Notes under the pieces: generated by a model
Database searches by the model: none
Told to the model about the DNA's origin: nothing
Seen by the model: the letters and a program-made list of their open reading frames with translations, nothing else
In this document: positions 46,335 to 64,000 of the stretch, one piece after another
Layout of the letters: each line of letters opens with the position of its first letter
Position numbering within the stretch: the first letter of the stretch is position 1
Assembly: GCA_017531445.1 (NCBI GenBank)
Contig: JAFXKZ010000002.1
Span: 9,286-73,285, forward strand
Reading direction: 5' to 3'
Length of the DNA stretch: 64,000 bases
From: Kiritimatiellia bacterium
GTDB lineage: Bacteria; Verrucomicrobiota; Kiritimatiellia; RFP12; DVOR01
Made by a program: the position numbers and the translations under genes

Positions 46335-46418
46335 TGGTGCTCGGGGGGGGACTCGAACCCCCACGGATCTCTCCACATGCACCTCAAGCATGCGTGTATG
46401 CCATTTCACCACCCGAGC
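46335..46418 (-). tRNA. tRNA-Leu (anticodon GAG)
   Basis: 84 nt. Acceptor GCTCGGG/CCCGAGC, anticodon stem CATGC/GCATG with loop TTGAGGT, long variable arm, T-arm GGGGG-TTCGAGT-CCCCC, and an encoded CCA. Confidence 0.9.
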
Positions 46419-51957: not shown

Positions 51958-52971
51958 TTATGGCCGTTTGACGGCATCCAATTCCAGTTCAAACAAGAGA
52001 TCGTCACGGCAGACATCCGCAATGATTTCTTGCGCATAATCAGTCGGAAGCCCGTTGGTTTTAAGCCAATTTTGCCATGCTGGCCGATCTTCAGGCCGCT
52101 TGATATAGGCGATTGCACGCACCGAATCTGCAAAAGACATACCACGTGTTTCAAGGATGGCTTGCACGACTTCCATCGTTAATTTCACTTGTTTGGCGGC
52201 ATCATCATGATGGACAGTCTCTCCGCCCGGCGCGATACTCGCGGTGCCGGAAACAAAGACTGTCCGCCATTCCGGGGTGACAATCTCCGCTGCCCGACTG
52301 AAACTGCTCCTGTAATCCAACGCAGAGCATTGGAGTGGCGAGGCGAGCATCGCCTTGCTGGCCTTTCCGTCTTTGGGACGCATCGCGATGGCTCCGGCAA
52401 TCATTGCCGCCCCAAGCGAATTTGCACATCCGATGCCTGTACTTGCCGGCACAAAGCCGCCAAAGATGTCATTCGCTTCAAAGAATTCGTCACGTACACG
52501 GTTGAGCACGTCATACCATTCTAAAAGCTTGTCCAAATAGAGCCAAGTTCTTACGACATCGTGGAAAGAAAATCCTTCATTTTTGAGGAGTTTGGAAATG
52601 TTTTCAAATACAGAACGCGCTTGTTGTTCTCTGGAGGCGGAAAGGTCATCCGGCGCAATGCCCATTAAGAGCACGTATTGCGCATACGCATCTTCGTACT
52701 TTGCTCCAACCGCTCTGCCGTTTTGCAAAATCACGCTCACGTCACCTTTGGTGGAGATGAAACGTTGAACCATCGGAGGTATGTCACCTGTAATTTCATT
52801 GGTCAACCAAATTCCCGGTACGTCTCCTTGTGGAAGTGTGGTAAGGATGGAGGGAGCCCCCCAACCATTACGCGCAATTTCTACTCCGCGTACAGGTGTT
52901 TCCAACGTCTGCCAAAGCGTACCATTCAACCATGTTAACATCGTATTCTCTCCAATGATCCAGCTGATCAA
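51958..52971 (-). CDS. RidA/YjgF-superfamily protein, FkbO/Hyg5 chorismatase-like architecture
   Basis: 337 aa, about twice the length of RidA. The C-terminal VSGTASIAPGGETVHHDDAAKQ...VRAIAYI resembles the chorismatase family pattern. Assigned from memory only. Confidence 0.45.
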   Translation of the reverse strand: MISWIIGENTMLTWLNGTLWQTLETPVRGVEIARNGWGAPSILTTLPQGDVPGIWLTNEITGDIPPMVQRFISTKGDVSVILQNGRAVGAKYEDAYAQYVLLMGIAPDDLSASREQQARSVFENISKLLKNEGFSFHDVVRTWLYLDKLLEWYDVLNRVRDEFFEANDIFGGFVPASTGIGCANSLGAAMIAGAIAMRPKDGKASKAMLASPLQCSALDYRSSFSRAAEIVTPEWRTVFVSGTASIAPGGETVHHDDAAKQVKLTMEVVQAILETRGMSFADSVRAIAYIKRPEDRPAWQNWLKTNGLPTDYAQEIIADVCRDDLLFELELDAVKRP

Positions 52972-52974
52972 TGT

Positions 52975-54870
52975 TCAAAGTGAAAGAATGTAAATTTCAA
53001 GATCGCTCAGTTCCTGTTCGGTTAAGTCCAAAGTTACTCCGTGATATTGCCCTTCGGGATTCCAAGTGGTGAGCACGTCACGAATAGTTTTTGCACGGCC
53101 ATCATAAAGGTAGGGGGCCGTTCTCCAGACTTCTTTCAATGTGGGAACGTCAAATTTCTGTCCTTTTTCGTCTCGCGTCCCCAAGCCGATGTCATACAAA
53201 GGGGCTTCCGAGCCATCGTTGGGGTTTGCCGAAGCCGTGAAGTGAAGTTCGGGCTTATGGCAACGCGCACAGTCTGCTTTATCTGTCCGTTCAAAGATTT
53301 CTTTCCCGCGAGCAATAGCTGCTGCATTTTCCTCGCGTGCCCAAGGTGAAGGTTGCGCTTTCATGTTCATTACATAAGCATCAATGCATTGGGTGTCTTC
53401 TTCGCTGACGGCACAAAATTGAATATGACGGAATCCTGCACGATTACAATGCTTCATATCTTTGCGAATGCCCGTAATCATTGTTGGCGGTGTGACACCG
53501 CTTAGATAGAGCGTCTTACTTTGTTTCGGATTTCCAATGCCGTCATTCAACAAATCCCAGTTCAGCCCGTCAACAATTCCATCCGGATGGCACGAGGCGC
53601 AGCTCTGCCATTGCTGGAAGCACTTGGTGCCGTCATTGAAGAGCATTTCGCCGCGCAATTCCGGATTAGCCTTCAGATCTGCCAGTGCATTTCCATTGAG
53701 AGGCGTTACTTTCGGGCGGATTTGGCGGCGTTCTTTGAATGGGATTTCAACTAATGCATCTGCATAATGACAGACGAGATAAGCGCGATCATTGGTTGCC
53801 ACGATGCCGCGCGGTCCATCGGCTTCAAAGGTAAAGCGACGTCGAATGCCGGTAAGGAATGAAAGATCGTTATGAACTTCCTCTGCAGAGAAAGTGACTT
53901 CGGTGACTTTCTTTCCCGCTGCAGCATCTTCCAATCGGCGATGCATCGCCGCACGATCAATCACACTCACTTCGCGTGTGCCGGCGTGTGTTACAAGGAT
54001 CTGCTCGCCATTCGGTGTAACAGTTACGCCCCATGGATTTGCTGCACCCAGATCAATGTCATCCAAAAGAACGGTGTTGATGTAGGCTCCTGTAGTGCCA
54101 TCGAAGACGGAGAGTGCTGCGGTATTCATCCATCCGCGCTCCAATTGTGTTGTGGGCAATTGATAACGCGCCTGCGTATGGGTAAGATAGATGTGCGCAC
54201 CATCGGGAGAAGCAGCGACACCCCGCACGCCGGTTGAACCATCCGGCAGGTGGATGTGGGCCTTGATGGCAAAGGTCTCTGTCTCAATAACCGTAACTTT
54301 TGCAGCCACGTGTCCGGTTGGTTCGGTGGTGTCATCAGGAAGCATATTGATGACAAAGAGCAACTTCCCATCTTTACCGAGTGCACAGCCATGCGTTTCG
54401 CGGATACATTTGGCTGTATTAAGCAATGTTAATGATTTTGCATCGTATTGCTGCACATTGGCATCAAAGCGGTTGCAAAGGTAAACATAACGCCCATCTG
54501 TCGAAACGATGGGAGCCATCGCTCCGTTCCCTGTTACGACAGAACGTCCGTCAGAACAGAAAAGTCTGCCTTCATTTCCGTCTTCTGCGGTGTAGTAAAT
54601 CGTTCCGTCAGGTGCAACCGCAGCCCCGGTTACCGGAAGTGAAACGCTGTCTTGAAACAACCCAAAGAAGCCTCCCATACGCTTAATCGCAGGAAACGAA
54701 CGCAGAAGAGTGCCATCAAGCGAACGCTCCGAAACGCATCCGGAACGTTTCTCTGCGATAATCAATCGATCTGCATTTGGGGAGAGAGAAATTGTTTCAG
54801 GTGAAAGATACGTCGCTTTTAAGAGCGCGTTCATACTGAAAAAACAGGCAAGCAAGAGTGTACGTTTCAT
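52975..54870 (-). CDS. secreted beta-propeller domain fused to a di-haem cytochrome c peroxidase/MauG-like domain
   Basis: Signal peptide from ATG 54870 (MKRTLLLACFF). The N-terminal ~400 aa carry repeated propeller-like blades. Two CxxCH sites are present (CASCHPDG, CARCHKPE). Confidence 0.8.
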   Translation of the reverse strand: MKRTLLLACFFSMNALLKATYLSPETISLSPNADRLIIAEKRSGCVSERSLDGTLLRSFPAIKRMGGFFGLFQDSVSLPVTGAAVAPDGTIYYTAEDGNEGRLFCSDGRSVVTGNGAMAPIVSTDGRYVYLCNRFDANVQQYDAKSLTLLNTAKCIRETHGCALGKDGKLLFVINMLPDDTTEPTGHVAAKVTVIETETFAIKAHIHLPDGSTGVRGVAASPDGAHIYLTHTQARYQLPTTQLERGWMNTAALSVFDGTTGAYINTVLLDDIDLGAANPWGVTVTPNGEQILVTHAGTREVSVIDRAAMHRRLEDAAAGKKVTEVTFSAEEVHNDLSFLTGIRRRFTFEADGPRGIVATNDRAYLVCHYADALVEIPFKERRQIRPKVTPLNGNALADLKANPELRGEMLFNDGTKCFQQWQSCASCHPDGIVDGLNWDLLNDGIGNPKQSKTLYLSGVTPPTMITGIRKDMKHCNRAGFRHIQFCAVSEEDTQCIDAYVMNMKAQPSPWAREENAAAIARGKEIFERTDKADCARCHKPELHFTASANPNDGSEAPLYDIGLGTRDEKGQKFDVPTLKEVWRTAPYLYDGRAKTIRDVLTTWNPEGQYHGVTLDLTEQELSDLEIYILSL

Positions 54871-55050
54871 TGTCTTGACTCCAAAATAAACCACGTTCAG
54901 TATAACATGTTTCGTGTGTTGCAAAGAGGCAAAATGCAAAATCAAACGCATTGCGTCCTGCAGTAACCAAAACATCACCTTCTTTAGTATAGCACATCAT
55001 TCACTTGAGGATGGGAAGAGGATTGATTTTGGAAAGAAAATCTTTTTTGC

Positions 55051-55077
55051 TTGACTTTATGCGGGGGGGGGTATCAT
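55051..55077 (+). promoter_or_regulatory. candidate promoter of the GTPase cassette with a G9 homopolymer in the spacer
   Basis: TTGACT (55051-55056), 15-nt spacer TTATGC+G9 (G run 55063-55071), TATCAT (55072-55077). Confidence 0.4.
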
Positions 55078-55150
55078 GTTATTAGTGAATACTACAAGTG
55101 GAGTTTGCATACGGCTCTACTTATAAGTCAATGAAGGATGGTTGAATTTT

Positions 55151-56395
55151 ATGGGTAATATTACGTTTTTGGGCGTTGAAGGTTCGGGTAAAACCGTTTT
55201 GACGATGGCATTGGTGAATGCTTTTAAGGCGCATGAACATGAAGGGTGGTTCTTACGTCCTGAAACGCGTGGTGCTTTTCGCTTTTTGGAACAGGACCCT
55301 TCGGAATTAAAAGAAGGAATGCTTCCGCACCAAACAACTGCCTTGCGCCAATTGGCTTGGAGTGTGGTGAAGGATGGCGAGCATCAGCAGACCTTGGATA
55401 TTTTGGACTATCCTGGTGAAGTCTATCGTCTTGCTTTCTTAAATGCGGAAGATGAAAATGATCCAGACGAATTTCGTGCGCGAGTCCAAGCACATCAAGA
55501 AGAAATTAAGGGATTCTTAGGACACCTGATTCTGTCTGAACATATCTTTGTTCTCTTCAATCTCTCTGATGCGAAGGATTTAGGCTCAAATGATAAAAAT
55601 CTGGATGCCGTATGGGTGACCAATGCGTGCTTAGATTATCTCCATCGATTGCCCCACAAACCACGTATTACCCTGCTTTTGACGCAGATTGATAGGTACG
55701 TGGATTTAGAACAGTGCGAATTTGACCCAAAAGTCTATGTCTCACATCACCTTCCCTTAATCGCCCACAACTTCCCTAATTTAGATGTTTATGCCGTTGC
55801 TGCTTTAGGTGCTGCAGACTCAACATTTGGCATTAATTCTATTCTTGTTCGTTGTTTGTTTAGCACCCCCGTTGTACAAGACGCAATCAATCATGTGAAA
55901 GAATGTCGTCGCAATTTAGAATACGTATTTGATTTAAGCGTTGAGGATGAAGCATTTTGTAGTCAAGTGATGAGTGCAGTTGAAAATCTCTCGTTTGATG
56001 CTCCTCATTGGAAACAGAAATTACCGTGGTTCATCAACGTAAAAGATTTAATTAATTCAACTGGGATGTTAAGCGCGGAGGATTGTCAAGAATGTAAAAC
56101 AATTGTGGATAAATATCGCGCAGTGCTACAAGAGTGTGATGGTAACACTATTGACTATTCATATTTAGCTTCTTTAATGTGTGAGATGGAGGCTAAAAGT
56201 GAAGAGGCTAGCCTGCTAGTGCAGAAGATGTATTCACAATTTCATGTAGCGGCATTAAAAGCTTGTCGGGCGGATCTTGTTATTCAACAAGCAGCTAAAA
56301 TTGAAAAGTGTAAATATTACGCTTCACGAAGCTTTTTAATCGTTTCCGTAATCATTTTACTCGCAACGTGTATCGTTGTTTTTGTTTGTGCGTGA
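55151..56395 (+). CDS. tail-anchored P-loop GTPase (Ras-like/TRAFAC motifs), family unassigned
   Basis: G1 GVEGSGKT, G3 LDILDYPGE, G4-like LLLTQID, a helical Cys-containing middle region, and a C-terminal TM helix FLIVSVIILLATCIVVFV. ATG 55151 follows AAGGA (the ORF track starts at TTG 55142). Confidence 0.7.
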   Translation: MGNITFLGVEGSGKTVLTMALVNAFKAHEHEGWFLRPETRGAFRFLEQDPSELKEGMLPHQTTALRQLAWSVVKDGEHQQTLDILDYPGEVYRLAFLNAEDENDPDEFRARVQAHQEEIKGFLGHLILSEHIFVLFNLSDAKDLGSNDKNLDAVWVTNACLDYLHRLPHKPRITLLLTQIDRYVDLEQCEFDPKVYVSHHLPLIAHNFPNLDVYAVAALGAADSTFGINSILVRCLFSTPVVQDAINHVKECRRNLEYVFDLSVEDEAFCSQVMSAVENLSFDAPHWKQKLPWFINVKDLINSTGMLSAEDCQECKTIVDKYRAVLQECDGNTIDYSYLASLMCEMEAKSEEASLLVQKMYSQFHVAALKACRADLVIQQAAKIEKCKYYASRSFLIVSVIILLATCIVVFVCA

Positions 56396-56405
56396 GGAAT
56401 TAATC

Positions 56406-57164
56406 GTGAAGAATCGCTATTGTAATAGTATCGCAATCCTTTGCTTGTTGGCGAGTGGATATATCGCGTTAGGTGTTTTCCCGAGGCTGCGAGAATATCG
56501 TATTGAAAAGGGATGTGTTGCGTATGTGTATGGAGATTACAAAACTGCTCTAAAATATTGTATTCCAGCAGCGAAACGTGGTCACGTGAAATCGATGGCC
56601 ATTGTGGGTGAATGTTATCGTAATGGTTATGAGGTTGAACAGTCTTATTCAGAGGCGGTGAAGTGGTATCGTAAGGCCGCAGAGCAAGGGCATGCATTGG
56701 CGCAGCTTAATCTTGGCGGGTGCTATGCAGTGGGCTACGGTGTTTCGCAGTCTTGGACAGAGGCAGTGAAGTGGTATCGCAAGTCTGCCGAGCAAGGAGA
56801 TGCGGTAGCGCAGTTTAATCTTGGAGTGTGTTATGCCAAAGGTGATGGTGTTTCGCAGTCTTGGACAGAGGCCGTGAAGTGGCTTCGCAAGTCTGCCGAG
56901 CAAGGAAATGCTGATGCGCAGCTTAATCTTGGTTGGTGTTATGCAGAGGGAAAAGGTGTTTCGCGGTCTCGGACAGAGGCTGTGAAGTGGTATCGCAAGT
57001 CTGCCGAGCAAGGAAATGCATTGGCGCAGTTTAATCTTGGCCGGTGTTATGCCTATGGTAATGGAGTTCGGCAGTCTTGGACAGAGGCTGTGAAGTGGTT
57101 TCGCAAGGCCGCCGAGCAAGGCGATCCGGATGCAAAGGAAGCATTGAAACGATTAGGATACTAA
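56406..57164 (+). CDS. N-terminally membrane-anchored Sel1-repeat (SLR/TPR-like) protein
   Basis: TM helix SIAILCLLASGYIALGVF followed by six 36-aa Sel1 repeats (AVKWYRKSAEQGNAxAQxNLGxCYAxGxGV). GTG 56406 lies 7 nt after a GAGGA that overlaps the GTPase stop. Confidence 0.85.
   Translation: MKNRYCNSIAILCLLASGYIALGVFPRLREYRIEKGCVAYVYGDYKTALKYCIPAAKRGHVKSMAIVGECYRNGYEVEQSYSEAVKWYRKAAEQGHALAQLNLGGCYAVGYGVSQSWTEAVKWYRKSAEQGDAVAQFNLGVCYAKGDGVSQSWTEAVKWLRKSAEQGNADAQLNLGWCYAEGKGVSRSRTEAVKWYRKSAEQGNALAQFNLGRCYAYGNGVRQSWTEAVKWFRKAAEQGDPDAKEALKRLGY
56652..57125 (+). repeat. tandem 108-bp DNA repeats encoding the Sel1 units
   Basis: Units start at 56652, 56760, 56868, 56976 and 57084 (GAGGCnGTGAAGTGG...). 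High nucleotide identity between units. Confidence 0.85.
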
Positions 57165-57274
57165 TGTCTAACGATTCATTTTTGAGTGATTATCTTTCGA
57201 AGGGGGATGCGGGGCATTCTTAAGGACGGGGTGTACGTCCGAACACATCTTCAGGGCATTCTTGTCAGTCTGTG

Positions 57275-57679
57275 ATGCGGGATACGGCGCAACCGATGGT
57301 GTGGGTGGAGGAGGTTGAGCCGTTACCTTCTTCAAATTTGATGGATGAGTCGTCAGAGATAGAGGAGGCGTTTAGTCGTCCTATTGTGATAGAGGGTGAA
57401 CGTGCGGCGTGTCAGGAGGCGATTCGAAATTTGTCCTTTTGGGCACTCTTTTGTCGACCATGGTCAATACATTGGAAGTGGGTCTTTTGCTTGGGGGCAA
57501 TTGTTTGCATTTTGACTGGTTTATTTGCTTCAAGTGATTTCATTCCGCATGAGATTTACGCCTTCTTGATGGCATTAACGGTGCCGATGACGATGGTGAC
57601 CTTCTTCTGTGAACTGGACGTTACGCGTGCAGTTTCGGGTGGACGGCGGCGATGGTGGCCTTTTTCGGTGGTCTTTTGA
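57275..57679 (+). CDS. N-terminal part of a PrsW-like protease (acidic cytoplasmic head plus TM helices), ending at a frame change
   Basis: ORF 57272..57679. TM segments WVFCLGAIVCILTGLF and YAFLMALTVPMTMVTFF. Terminates 28 nt inside the next ORF in a different frame. Confidence 0.5.
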   Translation: MRDTAQPMVWVEEVEPLPSSNLMDESSEIEEAFSRPIVIEGERAACQEAIRNLSFWALFCRPWSIHWKWVFCLGAIVCILTGLFASSDFIPHEIYAFLMALTVPMTMVTFFCELDVTRAVSGGRRRWWPFSVVF

Positions 57680-58203
57680 CGGTGTCAATCGCTGCGGTTT
57701 TGAATATCGGATTAGAGATAGAGGCGTGGATGGCGGGATTGACGGAAGAGCCGATTAAAGCCATCGCCTTGCTCATCTTAGCGATGTTTCCGCGTCAATT
57801 CCCTGGGATTTTGTCGGGAGTTGCTTTAGGAGTGAGTATCGGCGCAGGCTTTGCAGTGCTTGAAACGTTTGATTATGCGTATGCTTTTGGTGAAGCAGGG
57901 CGGCCGGATACGTTTGTTTTGTTATTGCGCGGTGTTCTCTCACCTTTGATGCATATGGCATGGACGGGGGCATTGGGTGGTGCGATGTGGGCTGCACGCG
58001 GACCACATCGAAGCGGATGGGCGGCACTCTCGTCTTGGCAGTTTTGGGCGGTGTTTGGTGCCATGATTCTTTTCCATTGTATTTGGAATGCGGTGGGCTT
58101 AATCAATTATTTGGCGATTGCCTTATGGAGTATTATCTTCCACTACCTTAAGAAAGGTTTCGCAGAGGTCTCGAATTGGGAATTTGAAGGACGGATTGTG
58201 TAA
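57652..58203 (+). CDS. PrsW-family intramembrane metalloprotease catalytic core
   Basis: EEPIK (EExxK), GFAVLET, HMAWTG and FHCIWN motifs embedded in TM helices, in the same order as in B. subtilis PrsW (EESLK, GFATLEN, SSHAL, LLHGSYD). Confidence 0.7.
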   Translation: MVAFFGGLLTVSIAAVLNIGLEIEAWMAGLTEEPIKAIALLILAMFPRQFPGILSGVALGVSIGAGFAVLETFDYAYAFGEAGRPDTFVLLLRGVLSPLMHMAWTGALGGAMWAARGPHRSGWAALSSWQFWAVFGAMILFHCIWNAVGLINYLAIALWSIIFHYLKKGFAEVSNWEFEGRIV

Positions 58204-58204
58204 C

Positions 58205-59197
58205 ATGATGACATTACCTTTAGCGATTTACACAGCAAATCATGGGTTGGCATGGACTTACCCAAAGCAAGAGATTGGTTTTGCAGAATTGGATTCCTGT
58301 CGTACGGCATTGGCACCTTTGCCTGACTTTGATATGGGTGAGGCGGGTTATGAAGGTGTTTGGGTGACGGCAGAGCGCGTCTTTGCGGTGGTTTGTCAAA
58401 GTGCGCCGAAATGGGGTTTTAGAGGACGTGATGCGACTTATCTTGCGGTCACCTGGATGACGCGTGAAGAGGCGAAGGGGGTTGATTTTGAAGTCCTGCT
58501 TTCTCATCCTGCATTGCGTACCCCCACGAAGAATCCGCCATCGTTTATTGAGGTTCATCAAACGCCATTTAGAAGTTGTCCAATTCAAGAATTGTCAACT
58601 GTGCTCCCCAGTTTTCAGTCAGTTGATGCTTTGATTTCTGCTTTGCCAATGAATCAAACGGCAAAGATTAAACGGATATTGAATATGTCTTCGGTTACCT
58701 GTCGGTATGAAACGATTGGATCGACCGGGTTCCCTCAACAAACGGTATCTCCGGTGTTTTCGCTTCCGGAGCAACCTCCGGAGCCTTCTGTGCCGCGGGA
58801 GGTGTCAAATCCAACGAGGCTTACCCCGGCACCATCGTTGATATCGATGATCCTTTTGATTTTCACACTCATTCTTTTAGGTTTTTCGCTTTTATTGAAT
58901 CTCTATTTGGGATGGGAGTGGCTCAATCAACGGCCGGAATTGAAACGAAACGTTCAGGAAACGATTGAAATGCAAGTGCCGACCGGACAATTGAAACAGA
59001 CAATTTACAGTGTGAAAGAAGCGTTATTTCAAAAGAAGAAGCATACAACAACCAATGAGATCAATACGATTGGTCAACCTCTCTTTGAGACGTCGCTCAA
59101 CGAAGAAGGCTTCCCGGCCGCTCTTTCAGTAACGAATAGCGCAACTATTATTAAAGCAGTTGATATTACAGCAGAAACAACAGAAGAAAAGAGGTAA
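58205..59197 (+). CDS. orphan single-pass membrane protein
   Basis: ATG 58205 lies 1 nt after the PrsW stop. About 210-aa N-terminal globular region, a Pro-rich linker, TM helix LISMILLIFTLILLGFSLLLNLYLGW, and a ~80-aa polar tail. No motif recognised. Confidence 0.6.
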   Translation: MMTLPLAIYTANHGLAWTYPKQEIGFAELDSCRTALAPLPDFDMGEAGYEGVWVTAERVFAVVCQSAPKWGFRGRDATYLAVTWMTREEAKGVDFEVLLSHPALRTPTKNPPSFIEVHQTPFRSCPIQELSTVLPSFQSVDALISALPMNQTAKIKRILNMSSVTCRYETIGSTGFPQQTVSPVFSLPEQPPEPSVPREVSNPTRLTPAPSLISMILLIFTLILLGFSLLLNLYLGWEWLNQRPELKRNVQETIEMQVPTGQLKQTIYSVKEALFQKKKHTTTNEINTIGQPLFETSLNEEGFPAALSVTNSATIIKAVDITAETTEEKR

Positions 59198-59200
59198 ATC

Positions 59201-59710
59201 ATGAACGAAGCCGAAAAATTCCTGCAAGAACACCTTGCGAAAGCGCAACGACCCCAACCCTCTGCGCCACAAGTTCAGACGACACCATTCGCATCAGGGG
59301 CGCAAAATGACAGTGCCGCTGTCGTAGGTAAACAACAGATGGTGTCAATGGGAGAAGCATTCAAACGCTTTTGGGTGAATTGGAGTCTGAATGGACGTTC
59401 ATCGCGTTCCGAATTTTGGTTTGCAGTATTAGCAAATTTTATTTTAGGTTTTCCAATTGGAATTGGAATAGCCGTAATTGGAGTGATTGTTCCTGCACTC
59501 GCAGAAGTGGCAGATATTCTTTTTTCGTTGTTGATATTATGGCCGGGTATTGCTATCGTGGTACGGCGATTACATGATATTGGGAAGTCTGGGTGGTGGT
59601 ATTGGATTTCCCTTATCCCATTTGTAGGATGTTTAATACTTTTGATTTTTATGTGTCGTGCTAGCGAGCCGTATGAAAATCGATATGGGCCAGTGCCGAA
59701 TGTGCGGTGA
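59201..59710 (+). CDS. DUF805 (YhaH/YhaI-like) inner-membrane protein
   Basis: GRSSRSEFW and VRRLHDIGKSGWWYWISLIP signature. ATG lies 3 nt after the preceding stop, with an AAGAGG RBS. Confidence 0.85.
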   Translation: MNEAEKFLQEHLAKAQRPQPSAPQVQTTPFASGAQNDSAAVVGKQQMVSMGEAFKRFWVNWSLNGRSSRSEFWFAVLANFILGFPIGIGIAVIGVIVPALAEVADILFSLLILWPGIAIVVRRLHDIGKSGWWYWISLIPFVGCLILLIFMCRASEPYENRYGPVPNVR

Positions 59711-59982: not shown

Positions 59983-62900
59983 TTAACGCGCCTGGGTGGC
60001 AAAGGCGTATGCGTTCTTGAAGAGTTTCATCCAGGGGCCTTCCTCGCCTCCGGCAAAGGTGCCGTCGTCATAAGAAAGCTGAATGGAGCGGAAGCTGCGT
60101 TCCGGATGCGGCATCAGGATTGTGGCGCGGCCGTCTTCCGAGGTAAAGCCGCAGAGTCCACCCTTGGAACCATTCGGATTCCATGGATAGATTTCGGTGG
60201 GGTTGCCTTTGCCATCAACGAAACGGAGGGCGCGGGTCGCTTTTTCCGCATCCGTCTCGCATTCAAATGCCACGCGCCCTTCGCCATGTGCAACGGCGAT
60301 GGGGAGACGACTGCCTGTCATACCTTTGAGAAGGACGCTGGGCGAATCCAGCACTTCAAGTGTGCAGTAACGGCCTTCAAACTGTTCGGAATTATTCCGT
60401 ACAAAGCGTGGCCAGTGTTGGGCTCCGGGGATAATATCTTTGAGCTGCGAAACCATCTGACAACCGTTGCAAACGCCAAGTGTGAAGGTGTCGGGGCGTT
60501 CAAAGAAGCGGCGGAACATTTCTTTGAGATCTGCATTAAAAAGAATGCTGCGCGCCCAACCTGATCCTGCGCCGAGTACGTCACCATATGAGAAGCCGCC
60601 GCAAGCGACCAAACCCTTGAAGTCGTCAAGATTGACACGCCCTTCAAGCAAATCAGTCATATGCACATCGATTGCTTCAAAGCCGGCAAGTGTAAAGGCG
60701 GCAGCCATTTCAATATGACCGTTAACGCCCTCCTCGCGCAAAATAGCCATCTTCGGAGCCGGAGTCGTTGCTTTGGGGGTATCTTCCGCATTCAAGGGAT
60801 AAGTGACCTTGAAGTTCAAGCCGGGGTCGTCGGTGAGACCGGCAACGTCATATTCCATCTTTGCACAATCAGGATTGTCGCGGAGTGCTTGCATATGGTA
60901 CGTGGTTTCCGACCACGCCTTACGGATGTCGGCAAGCGATTCGTCAATGGCCGGTTCGTCATTGACTGTAATCTGGAGTACGGGTTCTTCTTGTGTCAAG
61001 CCGATCCACGCACCATTGACGCCATGCTTTGTTAAAATCGCTTCCACGTCCGCAGCATTTTCCTCCAGCACTTGAAGCACTGCGCCGAGCTCTTCATTGT
61101 AAAGAGCAGAAAGCGCATCCTTGCCGGTAAGATTAACCGCTACGCCTTTGCCGCCGGCCATCGCCATCTCGGCAAGCGTAACGGCAACGCCACCGTCAGA
61201 ACGGTCGTGATAGGCCGCAACAAGACCACGTTCAACCATTTCCTGCATTGCTTCATAGAATGCGCGAACGCTTTCTGCGCTTTCCATATCCGGCACAGTG
61301 TCACCTATCTGGTTGTAAACTTGAGCCAAAGCAGATGCACCGAGACGTTCCTTTCCATTGCCGAGGTCTACCAGCATCAGGCGGGAAAAACCGGGTTTCA
61401 AATCGGGCGTGACGTCTTTGCGGGCATCCGTTACAGTGGCGAAAGACGAAACAATCAATGAGAGAGGCCCCACTTGTTTGTGCTCTTTCCCCTGCGAATC
61501 TTTCCAAACCGTACGCATGGAGAGTGAATCTTTGCCTACCGGAATGCAGACGCCCAAGCGGGGGCAAATGTCCATGCCGACGGTTTCCACTGTGTCAAAG
61601 AGACGCGCGTCTTCGCCCTCTTCGCCGCAAGCCGCCATCCAGTTGGCAGAGAGTTTAATCGTGCCGATAGGGCCGATCGGAGCCGAGGCAAGCTGGAGAA
61701 TTGCTTCGCCCACAGCCATACGTCCGGAAGCCGGGGCATCAACGATTGCAATGGGGGTGCGCTCACCTGTTGCCATTACTTCGCCTGTTGTTGTCTGATA
61801 GCCCGTAACCGTGAGCGCGTGGTCGGCTACCGGAAGCTGATACTTGCCGCACATTTGGTCGCGGTGAACCATGCCCGTAATTGTGCGGTCGGTAATGGTA
61901 ACAAGGAACGTTTTATTGGCAACGGCAGGGAAACGCAGAATACGTTGGAGTGCCGCCGCAGGAGTAATGCCTTCCAAGTTTAATGACGTTGTGGGAAGCG
62001 TAATGTGTTTGACATCGCGCACCATGCGTGGCGGTTTTCCAAGCAAGGTTGAAATATCCATGTCAATGGGATTGTCGTCAAAGTGTTCATCATGGAGCAC
62101 CATGCGCCCATCATCACGCGTTTCACCAATAAATGCGACCGGGCAACGCTCGCGTTCGCAGAAGCTCTCAAACAAGACTTTGTCTTCTGCACGGATGGCA
62201 AGTACATAACGCTCTTGCGCTTCACAGCACCAGATTTCCATCGGGCTCATGGAGATTTCTTCATTATGCACCTTGCGGAGTTCAAAGTCTGCACCCGTGG
62301 CTTCAACCAACTCCGGACAGCCATTTGAGAGACCGCCGGCACCAATGTCATGCAAAGAAAGGATAGGATTGGACGAACCGAGTGCAACACACGCATCAAT
62401 TACACCCTGACAACGGCGTTGCATTTCAGCATTGCCGCGCTGTACGGAGTCGAAATCAAGCTTTGCTTCGTTGGTCCCGGAGGCCATGGAACTCGCCGCA
62501 CCGCCACCGAGCCCGATACGCATTGCAGGACCTCCGATTTGAACTACGAGCACGTGTGACGGGACCTCTTTCTTAAGCACTTGGTCGTGGCGGATATTAC
62601 CCATGCCGCCGGCGAGCATGATCGGTTTGTGGTATCCCCAATATTTGCCGCAAGCTTCTTCTTCAAGTGTGCGGAAGAAGCCGCAAAGTTGCGGACGACC
62701 GAATTCATTCCCGAACGCGGCTCCGCCGATAGGGCCTTCCATCATGATACTCAGTGCAGGAGAAAGACGTTCCGGACGCTCCGCATAATCCTTTTCCCAT
62801 GGTTGCAGAAAGCCGGGAATCCGCAGGTCGCTTACACAGAATCCGCAGATACCGGCCTTGGTACGCGAACCGATGCCGGTGGCACTCTCATCGCGGATTT

Positions 62901-63843
62901 CACCACCTACACCGGTGGCTGCGCCGGGATAGGGGGAAATTGCGGTGGGATGGTTGTGCGTTTCCACCTTCATCAACATTTCAATCTGATCCTCTGCGAA
63001 CTTGTAAGTGTTGTCCTTCGGATCTGCTTGAAAGGCCATTGTACGAAAACCATCTATCACACCGGAATTGTCTTTATAGGCGACTTGTGTGCCTTCCGGA
63101 TGCAACGTGTGGGTGTTCTTAATCATGCCAAAGAGCGAAACATCACGCTTTTTCCCATCAATAATCCACTTGGCGTTGAAGATTTTATGGCGGCAGTGTT
63201 CAGAATTGACCTGACCAAACATTGTCAATTCGGTGTCAGTAGGGTTGCGTTGAGCTTTCGTATAGGCGGTGAAGAGGTAGTCGATCTCCGGGTCGCTCAT
63301 TGCAAGACCAATTTCTTTATTAGCCTGAACGAGTGCGTCACGTCCTTGCCCTAAGACGTCGAAAATCTTTCCTTTTGCCGGGCGGGCATTGACGAAAAAG
63401 GCCGGTAACTCTTCGGTAACAAAGACGCCCTCAATCATCCGGTCGTGCAGCACATTCAATGCGTCTGCACTAAGTTCTGCGCGTGAAAGCACCTTTCCGT
63501 TTTGGGAAACAGTCATGTGCATTGCGTGCTCAACGCGCCGCACCCCACGCACACCGCAATAGCGGAAGATGTCGGTCGCCTTTGAGCTCCACGGCGAGAT
63601 CGTGCCTAATCGAGGTGCAACGAAAATTCCTTCAGCCGGAAGTGCCAACGATGCGTCCGCGTCTAAAAGTGTGCACGCCTTTGCTACCGCTTCTGCTGTC
63701 AGGGCTGAAGAGGTTTGCAATAAGTAGATCCATCGTGTCTCAATCTCGCAACCTTGCAAACCGATTTCGGAAAGACGCTTCTTCAAAGCATCCACGCGGA
63801 AAGTTGAAAGTGCGGTTTGTCCGACTAAAAATTCAGTTGCCAT
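59983..63843 (-). CDS. purL: phosphoribosylformylglycinamidine synthase, single-chain large form
   Basis: About 1286 aa. N-terminal FGAM synthase domains and a C-terminal glutamine amidotransferase domain with GVCNGCQM. Start ATG 63843 ([13 protein letters not shown]). Confidence 0.95.
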
Positions 63844-64000
63844 AAGTTTTTCCTTACAATAAAAGCGACTCATGAAAAGCACTTATTATTGTAGCATAAA
63901 TGGCATAAGAAAGAACCGGGTTTTGGCAAGTCTATTTCGGTAAACGGCATGAATGTTTGCTGGGGAGAGATTCGGGCGCATGAGCGATTTCATCACTTAC

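Follow-up and report, generated by a model that had tools for sequence, protein, structure and literature searches.

PrsW is an envelope-stress protease, and in the sigma-W pathway of Bacillus subtilis its substrate is RsiW. A prsW gene is also found in the cassette of five co-directional genes that is the subject of this report, located in a 64-kb stretch of DNA from contig JAFXKZ010000002.1 of a Kiritimatiellia bacterium (the whole stretch is referred to below as the window). Besides PrsW, the cassette encodes a GTPase, a Sel1-repeat protein, a partner protein of the GTPase, and a DUF805 membrane protein. Judging from sequence comparison, the closest described kind of system would be the predicted DO-GTPase systems, to which the link is a distant one. 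These DO-GTPase/GAP1 systems are "GTPase-centric" conflict systems predicted in silico only (Kaur, Burroughs, Iyer & Aravind, eLife 2020; PMC7159879), and the related DO-GTPases are themselves predicted conflict switches (PMC7159879).

Another point of reference is the pairing of a small GTPase with a longin or Roadblock regulator, as occurs in MglA/MglB, in Rag with GATOR1 or FLCN-FNIP, and in the DENN guanine nucleotide exchange factors (GEFs) of Rab proteins (PMC3521125, PMC3747258). A third is TagF, an accessory regulator of type VI secretion (PDB 9T0N; bioRxiv 10.64898/2025.12.08.692957). The initial annotation of this DNA knew of no named system with the composition of the cassette, and this has held, as PADLOC gave nothing significant and the literature on PrsW with DUF805, on DUF805, and on GTPases of these phyla contained no description of one.

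The cassette is a real, conserved and undescribed operon of gut Lentisphaerota and Kiritimatiellota, and its hosts belong to a little-studied gut and rumen lineage rich in uncultured members. Since the GTPase and partner genes adjoin each other in scans made from either side, as well as in distant relatives, the core of the cassette is the GTPase plus its partner. The five genes had been presented as equal parts of one module; the other three are better regarded as attached to this core.

The cassette in the window

Direct reading of the 64-kb window places the five genes on the forward strand, between a peroxidase gene and purL. Lengths are in amino acids (aa).

55151–56395, forward strand: tail-anchored TRAFAC GTPase, 414 aa, recognized by its G motifs and by AlphaFold2 (AF2) and Foldseek
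56406–57164, forward strand: N-terminally anchored Sel1-repeat protein, 252 aa, with a GTG start (Pfam Sel1)
57275–58203, forward strand: prsW, disrupted, with its ATG at 57275 (Pfam PF13367)
58205–59197, forward strand: GTPase partner, 330 aa, a new family recognized by AF2 and adjacency
59201–59710, forward strand: DUF805 membrane protein, 169 aa (Pfam PF05656)

The co-directional arrangement and its tight junctions, as first reported, were confirmed by the same reading. The GTPase stop codon (TGA, 56393–56395) precedes the Sel1 GTG at 56406 by 10 nucleotides (nt), with a GAGGAA sequence overlapping the TGA; the prsW stop at 58203 lies 1 nt from the partner ATG at 58205; and the partner stop at 59197 lies 3 nt from the DUF805 ATG at 59201. 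The gap from Sel1 to prsW is 110 nt. A Kyte-Doolittle scan likewise bore out a membrane anchor on every product, including a C-terminal transmembrane (TM) segment in the GTPase (residues 395–413), an N-terminal one in the Sel1 protein (8–26), a polytopic PrsW, and a DUF805 protein in which a soluble N-terminal region of ~60 aa is followed by three TM segments. No further copy of the cassette was found in the 64-kb window.

The family assignments made from the sequence also stood. The Sel1 protein has five repeats and matches Pfam Sel1 at 181 bits (E 1.1e-54), the DUF805 protein matches PF05656 at 99.7 bits (E 1.7e-28), both above cut-off, and PrsW scores 73–78 bits against a cut-off of 23.5. 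The GTPase is upheld by its G1–G5 motifs, an AF2 confidence (pLDDT) of 91.7, and a Foldseek probability of 1.0. An NCBIfam scan of the cassette gave generic Sel1 look-alikes (MerG, ExoR, MotX) far under cut-offs and a sub-threshold PrsW match, while a PHROGs scan gave only look-alikes of Sel1 and DUF805, the latter being phrog_12855 "membrane protein" (E 8e-28).

Conservation and architecture of related loci

Forty-five related loci were assembled from gut or rumen metagenomes of Kiritimatiellia and Lentisphaerota; pattern scans, which reach only fairly close relatives, supplied 42 of them. A GTPase-side scan of 185,579 species genomes gave 23 loci, and a partner-side scan of metagenomes gave 19. 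The records of the 23 GTPase-side loci are nearly all labelled as Kiritimatiellia or Lentisphaerota metagenome-assembled genomes of gut or rumen or as unclassified, with a single one labelled Lachnospiraceae.

Sixteen GTPase-side loci extend far enough downstream to be informative, and at 13 of them a partner homologue comes after the GTPase, either directly or behind Sel1 or PrsW; the other three consist of GTPase-Sel1 units or a fusion. From the other side, a GTPase gene was found upstream of the partner at every partner-side locus with enough upstream DNA (14/14). Even distant partner relatives (E 1e-9 to 1e-15) adjoin DO-GTPase-like GTPases of 828–898 aa at three loci (L047, L048 and L049). 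The flanking genes vary by locus, with purL here and NfeD, Band7 and RNase III at locus L050 of a neighbouring species, and because they differ, the adjacency of the cassette genes is not simply inherited context. The proposal that the cassette is conserved as a unit was thus borne out by synteny among the related loci, and chance was excluded by its persistence in differing genomic contexts. The fourth gene, initially called an orphan, is by adjacency an obligate partner of the GTPase, and its family numbers ~200 clusters.

The loci fall into three classes according to the partner. In Class I (13 loci, the window included) the partner has two subdomains, a TM segment and 48 aa or more of external tail. 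Twelve of these loci have PrsW, the exception being L007, where a second GTPase gene stands in the place of prsW, and DUF805 occurs in 1–3 copies wherever the contig reaches far enough. Class II (13 loci) has a soluble partner of 143 aa and neither PrsW nor DUF805, and its GTPase, of ~470–600 aa, carries its own TM segment and a C-terminal ectodomain. In Class III (7 loci) the partner has a TM segment and a tail of about 29–56 aa, and PrsW is missing. Counted without regard to kinship among the loci, PrsW therefore occurs at 12 loci, all with a long-tailed TM partner, and at 0/13 soluble-partner and 0/7 short-tail loci. PrsW and DUF805 are an add-on, found only with a partner that is anchored in the membrane and bears a long external tail. 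The earlier idea of PrsW acting on a neighbouring single-pass protein agrees with this co-occurrence in the case of the partner; for the Sel1 protein, also named as a possible substrate, another reading is preferred (see below).

Several loci show further arrangements. In the neighbouring species, three GTPase-Sel1 units stand in tandem at L050 (2844–15391, on a contig shared with L052) ahead of just one PrsW-partner-DUF805 set, and the cassette there occupies another genomic site, beside NfeD, Band7 and RNase III. L029 (6989–8899) has two GTPase genes ahead of prsW and a tandem array of three DUF805 paralogues behind the partner gene. At L049 (4514–10200) the partner-like protein and an 898-aa GTPase both end, beyond the TM segment, in Cys-rich CxxCxGxG repeats of the DnaJ type, and genes for a Ser/Thr kinase and an AAA ATPase lie immediately upstream of this distant pair.

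The GTPase and its Sel1 neighbour

The features of the TRAFAC class found in the GTPase are G1 (GxxxxGK[ST]), a switch-I Thr, G3 (DxxG), G4 ([NT][KQ]xD) and a P-loop GTPase fold. The motifs are GVEGSGKT for G1 (residues 8–15), T62 for G2, DYPGE for G3 (86–90, with a Walker-B Glu) and TQID for G4 (178–181), and all are invariant or nearly so in 21–84 homologues; within G3, D86, P88 and G89 are invariant in the homologue alignment and E90 is at least 90% conserved. A helical domain follows at ~240–350. The AF2 model matches EF-Tu, Gtr1/Rag, Rab5, Ran and G-alpha in Foldseek with a probability of 1.0 and 10–14% identity.

The best Pfam matches of this GTPase family are DO-GTPase1 (PF19975) and DO-GTPase2 (PF19993), with 31 of 84 relatives reaching E<=0.01 (best 1.4e-6). 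The window protein itself scores 21.5 bits against DO-GTPase2 and 19.2 against DO-GTPase1, under the cut-off of 27 and over the first ~100 model positions only. This points to a distant relative of the DO-GTPases that is not a member by the curated threshold. A profile search of PDB sequences with the GTPase revealed no relative, only TM, coiled-coil or P-loop noise. An alternative assignment to YcjX/DUF463 (E 0.027, in 2/84 members) was dropped as insignificant.

Within the Sel1 gene, positions 56650–57121 form a tandem repeat of 108 nt (4.4 copies, 82% matches), and the length of the gene product varies, from 252 aa in the window to 180 aa (two fewer repeats) in the conspecific contig L025 and 438 to 942 aa for the Sel1 partners in L050. 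GTPase-TM-Sel1 fusions were found in P0035, P0074, L022 and L047. Because such fusions exist, the Sel1 protein is best read, and most simply so, as a detached periplasmic domain of the GTPase. By the same token, since the Sel1 domain is fused behind the GTPase TM segment in relatives, the two window proteins look like a split receptor, with the ectodomain outside and the GTPase inside. The fusions also make this a better reading of the Sel1 protein than that of a likely PrsW substrate, which had been proposed for it.

The window GTPase is a mosaic. Its N-terminal half is 94% identical to copies a and b of L050 and its C-terminal half only 24–40%, while the C-terminal half is 90.5% identical to copy c, whose N-terminal half reaches only 78%. 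The C-terminal half is co-inherited with a Sel1 protein having the same N-terminal TM sequence, and the N-terminal half recombines independently. This pattern fits a mosaic inheritance in which the C-terminal/TM module of the GTPase would be paired with its cognate Sel1 protein. Copies a and b of L050 are themselves 99% identical over their first 300 nt and unrelated in their 3′ halves.

The partner protein

The partner has a cytoplasmic N-terminal domain (1–175), a Pro-rich linker, one TM segment (212–230) and a variable external tail of ~100 aa. Its N-terminal ~175 residues are strongly conserved, with an AF2 pLDDT >90 for most of 1–170, and they divide into subdomain 1 (~1–110, with the strand and helix order bb-a-bbb-a) and subdomain 2 (114–170). 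Residues A11, G14, W17, G51 and R75 are invariant across distant members. All members of the family are unnamed; they form 202 representative clusters in a set of 1.84 billion proteins, and no significant match was found for the partner in Pfam, PADLOC, PHROG or PDB sequences. By these sequence searches the partner is the first member of a family that has neither an annotation nor a Pfam entry. A profile search of PDB sequences gave only TM, coiled-coil or P-loop noise, and a Foldseek comparison of the model with viral structures gave nothing credible. A match to Sigma_reg_N (E 2e-4, under cut-off) was dropped, as it sits on the TM segment alone.

The best Foldseek match of the partner model is TagF (9t0n), at a probability of 0.97, E 0.04, a TM-score of 0.34 for the full-length model, and 8% identity. 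Next come the longin domains of GATOR1 (Nprl2/3), SEAC, FLCN-FNIP2, Lst4 and DENND10, all at E>0.03, among which Nprl2/3, FNIP2, Lst4 and DENND10 fall at E 0.2–0.5; PAS and GAF-like folds score similarly. The order bb-a-bbb-a would fit a longin-like sandwich in the N-terminal domain, and the weak fold likeness is offered as a lead, not a result.

prsW and the DUF805 gene

The initial annotation took prsW to be a single open reading frame (ORF). In the window it is split into two ORFs in different frames, 57272–57679 and 57652–58203, by a 1-nt deletion that is absent from three conspecific contigs. The window has GGG at 57637–57639, reading TCGGG-TGG, where L025, L026 and L027 have GGGG, in the context TCGGGGTGG. 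The reading frame of the 5′ piece closes at 57679; that of the 3′ piece is open from 57613/57652 as far as 58203.

Insertion of one G yields a 309-aa protein in which all PrsW motifs are restored, with EExxK at 158–162, FxxxE at 193–197, H227, and HxxxN at 268–272. EExxK, FxxxE, H and HxxxN are the motifs of the PrsW/CPBP family. PF13367 is matched by the 3′ ORF (77.8 bits), not by the 5′ ORF, and by the repaired protein (73.2 bits). The frameshift parts the first three predicted TM segments from the catalytic motifs, and we infer that, if the 1-nt deletion is real and not an error of sequencing, the protease branch is inactive in the window. An intact 346-aa PrsW product is called in L027, L050 and L051, and the window fragments are 99% identical to the intact L027 allele.

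In the DUF805 gene, the central TM region (59423–59667) is allelic and the ends are conserved, at 96–98% on the nucleotide level. The protein is only 54–57% identical to its conspecific copies.

Variation and decay within one species

Four conspecific contigs were compared with the window, of which L025, L026 and L027 cover the cassette beyond the Sel1 start. Their flanking proteins are 98.5–99.5% identical to those of the window. Identities for the cassette proteins range over 73–99.5% for the GTPase, 52–99% for Sel1, 68–96% for the partner, 54–57% for DUF805, and 89–99% for PrsW. The divergent stretches are the external tail of the partner and the TM core of DUF805, located between blocks of 96–98% nucleotide identity.

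Independent lesions occur in three of the four conspecific sequences covering the cassette. L025 has a prsW frameshift different from that of the window, and L026 has two in-frame stop codons in the GTPase gene along with a 19-nt promoter deletion; L027 is intact over the part covered, from the end of Sel1 through DUF805. The cassette is diversified, mosaic and decaying within one species, and diversification this strong is suggestive of conflict-type selection acting on the locus. The decayed cassette of L026 (3261–6999, from an Illumina megahit assembly) still has open prsW, partner and DUF805 genes.

Promoter region, post-Sel1 sequence and neighbouring genes

The remaining features of the region are as follows.

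52975–54978, reverse strand: cytochrome-c-peroxidase/beta-propeller gene, the 5′ flank of the cassette
55051–55077, forward strand: promoter-like site, with TTGACT at 55051–55056, a 15-nt spacer, and TATCAT at 55072–55077, its function being putative
57164–57215, forward strand: conserved sequence of ~50 nt after the Sel1 stop, in which an ATG overlaps the TAA stop (TAATG)
59983–63882: purL, the 3′ flank of the cassette

Position 55051, formerly given as the start of the cassette, is not a gene start; the promoter-like TTGACT-15 nt-TATCAT site, with a run of nine G residues (G9), is found there instead. The site was read from the sequence, since the promoter scanner passed over it because of its 15-nt spacer, and a scan for promoters and terminators was in any case uninformative, its hits being at or below the expectation from shuffled sequence. 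The G9 run (55063–55071) within the spacer is the longest homopolymer of the 64-kb window. Conspecifics L024 and L025 likewise have G9, and in L026 the 19-nt deletion has removed the -10 element. A homopolymer at this location could be a candidate slipped-strand phase-variation tract. The only other window homopolymer to pass the scan thresholds (at least 8 for C/G, at least 9 for A/T) is a G8 run at 46343–46350. The GC content over the GTPase gene (55000–56500) is 0.39–0.44, versus about 0.50–0.56 in the flanking housekeeping genes.

The sequence after the Sel1 stop is read in some gene calls as an N-terminal extension of PrsW (346 aa). The window and L025 have an in-frame TAA at 57221–57223, where L026 and L027 have CAA or CAG. 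In L050 the same sequence trails the Sel1 genes lying ahead of GTPase copies b and c, with another GTPase gene next rather than prsW, and because of this it is probably non-coding. The stretch from 57164 to 57223 may be a regulatory or recombination element. The occurrence of the same sequence before GTPase genes in L050 was also the reason for dropping the idea that the ATG overlapping the Sel1 stop is the true PrsW start, which would have made the TAA at 57221–57223 a second lesion.

Upstream of the cassette, 51958–52971 on the reverse strand encodes a protein of 337 aa that has two stretches resembling L-PSP/RidA and, at its N-terminus, a weak match to chorismatase of the FkbO/Hyg5 kind. 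It adjoins the 667-aa beta-propeller and di-haem peroxidase-like protein, and both are ~99% conserved in the conspecific contigs.

Proposed mechanism and alternatives

The reading that we tentatively prefer, with slightly less than even confidence, is that this lineage-specific operon encodes a membrane-embedded GTPase switch. Every part of the model rests on computation, and the mechanism is put forward as a proposal. On this view a periplasmic or envelope ligand would bind to the Sel1 ectodomain, which would act by way of the paired TM and helical module to set the GTPase state. The N-terminal domain of the partner could act on the GTPase as a GTPase-activating protein (GAP), a GEF or an effector platform, as suggested by its weak fold resemblance to TagF and longin domains, and the invariant R75 would be a candidate arginine finger. 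Because the N-in/C-out topology of the partner is the same as that of RsiW, PrsW might cleave its external tail, such that the partner is released or destroyed and the switch is gated. DUF805 would be the likely membrane output. As for the biological role, a part in envelope surveillance or in conflict, be it attack by phages or by other bacteria, would be favoured over housekeeping because the cassette diversifies, recombines and decays within the species. The G9 run in the promoter spacer, the lower GC content and the kinship to DO-GTPases, as predicted conflict switches, would also be in line with conflict-like behaviour.

Several observations weigh against this model. The TagF/longin likeness is marginal (E 0.04–0.5, TM-score 0.34), with PAS and GAF-like folds in the same list and no support at the sequence level. 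A search of all six ORFs against PADLOC-DB 2.0 gave nothing significant, the best matches (E 0.0045 and 0.00026) falling on coiled-coil or repeat regions. Defence islands were sought among 94 flanking ORFs of 16 loci, which proved to be mostly housekeeping genes with no recurrent defence gene and with sporadic, non-recurrent PADLOC matches. No toxic effector domain is recognizable in the cassette, and the family occurs in a single bacterial lineage, whereas most defence systems are not so restricted. The breakage of prsW in both the window and L025 would make the protease dispensable or the cassette a decaying one, and the correlation of PrsW with the long-tailed partner may reflect the shared ancestry of one subclade rather than function. 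Finally, no function for the DUF805 family was found in the searchable literature. An anti-phage role, as envisaged in the initial annotation, thus draws no support from PADLOC or from the content of the neighbourhood, and it is the diversification that keeps a role in conflict open.

If the model of a membrane-embedded switch holds, it would give GTPase-centred multi-component systems, so far predicted, a new partner family and a protease-gated layout. It would also provide PrsW proteases with a client other than a sigma-factor pathway, and both DUF805 and the new family of ~200 clusters with a first functional context. A bolder version, which we consider unlikely, would have the cassette be a "receptor GTPase", a type of bacterial transmembrane signalling not recognized so far, in which a periplasmic repeat domain would sense an envelope insult and the nucleotide state would be controlled by a membrane-tethered, possibly longin/TagF-like regulator, itself gated by PrsW site-1 proteolysis, the whole serving as a diversifying envelope immunity of gut bacteria of the PVC group. 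Were this true, regulated intramembrane proteolysis would be joined to a GTPase switch and not to a sigma factor.

The alternative that survives best, and that is conceivable if doubtful, is that the same parts serve housekeeping, in envelope stress or biogenesis or in cell polarity, much as MglA/MglB or sigma-W/RsiW/PrsW do, with gene conversion between paralogues and relaxed constraint accounting for the variability. Such a role would suit the housekeeping neighbours, the lack of recurrent mobile-element or defence genes around the loci, the restriction to one lineage, the fixed position within the species, the lack of a toxic effector domain, and the general standing of PrsW as an envelope-stress protease. 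Variation of 52 to 99% among strains would be unexpected of housekeeping genes, however, when the flanks are 99% identical, as would independent disruption in three of four conspecific sequences. The copy number of the GTPase-Sel1 unit and of DUF805, which varies from 1 to 3, and the lack of a sigma or anti-sigma gene in the cassette also speak against it.

Classical abortive infection, whereby the GTPase would sense infection, PrsW would activate the response, and DUF805 would permeabilize the membrane and kill the cell, appears decidedly unlikely. Diversification, mosaicism, decay and copy-number variation would all be in keeping with it, and so would the kinship to DO-GTPases as predicted conflict switches, the match of DUF805 to a PHROG of phage "moron" membrane proteins, and the homopolymer in the promoter. 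Yet PADLOC found nothing significant, there is no defence-island context, and the taxonomic range is narrow. Moreover, the Sel1 sensor would face the periplasm when most phage cues are cytoplasmic, and PrsW and DUF805 cannot be a general effector because they are absent from more than half of the partner-gene loci.

It is quite improbable that the cassette merely juxtaposes two unrelated modules, one consisting of GTPase, Sel1 and partner and the other of PrsW and DUF805, with no functional tie between them. The existence of the GTPase-partner pair without PrsW or DUF805 at no fewer than 20 loci would be explained in this way, along with the 110-nt gap before prsW and the loss or breakage of prsW where other genes are intact. 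The position of prsW argues otherwise, since the gene is flanked by GTPase and partner at five loci (L002, L008, L029, L031 and L032) and by Sel1 and partner at the window locus, L001 and L028, and in the window only 1 nt separates it from the partner gene. Furthermore, PrsW is found only with the long-tailed TM partner, and the trio recurs in different genomic contexts. The least credible possibility, and a very slight one, is that the cassette is a decaying remnant without function in this genome, to which the frameshifted prsW of the window, the different prsW frameshift of L025, and the promoter deletion and two GTPase stop codons of L026 might point, but the remaining four window genes are intact and keep strongly conserved motifs, many other genomes have an intact cassette, and the PrsW fragments are 99% identical to the intact L027 allele, so that the lesion would be recent or a homopolymer sequencing error.

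Comparison with known systems

The structure that comes closest to the partner model is that of TagF, and the two share a two-domain alpha+beta or alpha/beta organization. TagF is soluble, however, and binds Fha or Hcp, not a GTPase. No Pfam match to TagF was found in the partner, and no type VI secretion family was among those listed for the flanking genes of the 16 loci.

The PrsW-RsiW-sigma-W pathway of B. subtilis resembles the cassette in that a prsW gene lies beside the gene for a single-pass, N-in/C-out protein having a cytoplasmic regulatory domain and an external tail. It differs in that the cassette has neither a sigma factor nor an anti-sigma factor (Pfam found no sigma-70 or zf-HC2 domain in it), that the cytoplasmic domain of the partner is paired with a GTPase, and that prsW is frameshifted in the window. 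The analogy would hold for topology and adjacency only.

Pairs of a GTPase and a longin or Roadblock regulator have in common with the cassette a GTPase accompanied by a small partner, here modelled as an alpha/beta sandwich, and the bb-a-bbb-a order of the partner model would fit a longin-like platform. Rag/Gtr is among the best structural matches of the cassette GTPase, and the genetic pairing of partner with GTPase is seen at 13/16 and 14/14 informative loci and in distant relatives. On the other hand, the structural likeness is weak (E >0.03) and unaccompanied by sequence similarity, the cassette GTPase is not a Ras-like small GTPase, as it consists of ~235 aa together with a helical domain and a TM segment, and both members of the pair are membrane-anchored. 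Such pairs might nonetheless offer a weak, model-based functional analogy for the core of the cassette.

The predicted DO-GTPase systems differ from the cassette in their components. The cassette GTPase scores under the Pfam cut-offs, its TM segment is C-terminal rather than N-terminal, and the window copy is without zinc ribbons. The cassette has no GAP1 (N1/N2, M and C domains), GASH helical or FNIII-repeat components: no GAP1 family is reported for the window partner or named in the lists of family matches for 30 homologues that are close (E<=1) and 46 that are distant (E<=0.01), and Pfam searches with all cassette proteins gave only Sel1, PrsW and DUF805, with no GASH or FNIII. In the position of GAP1 stands a different, smaller partner family, and the accessories are PrsW, DUF805 and Sel1 instead of nucleotide-directed effectors. 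Both kinds of system have a TRAFAC GTPase with a conserved Walker-B Glu (DYPGE here) and a conserved partner gene immediately downstream of it, and both show frequent TM components, several paralogous copies per genome, variable accessory genes, and occasional tandem GTPase pairs, as at L007 and L029.

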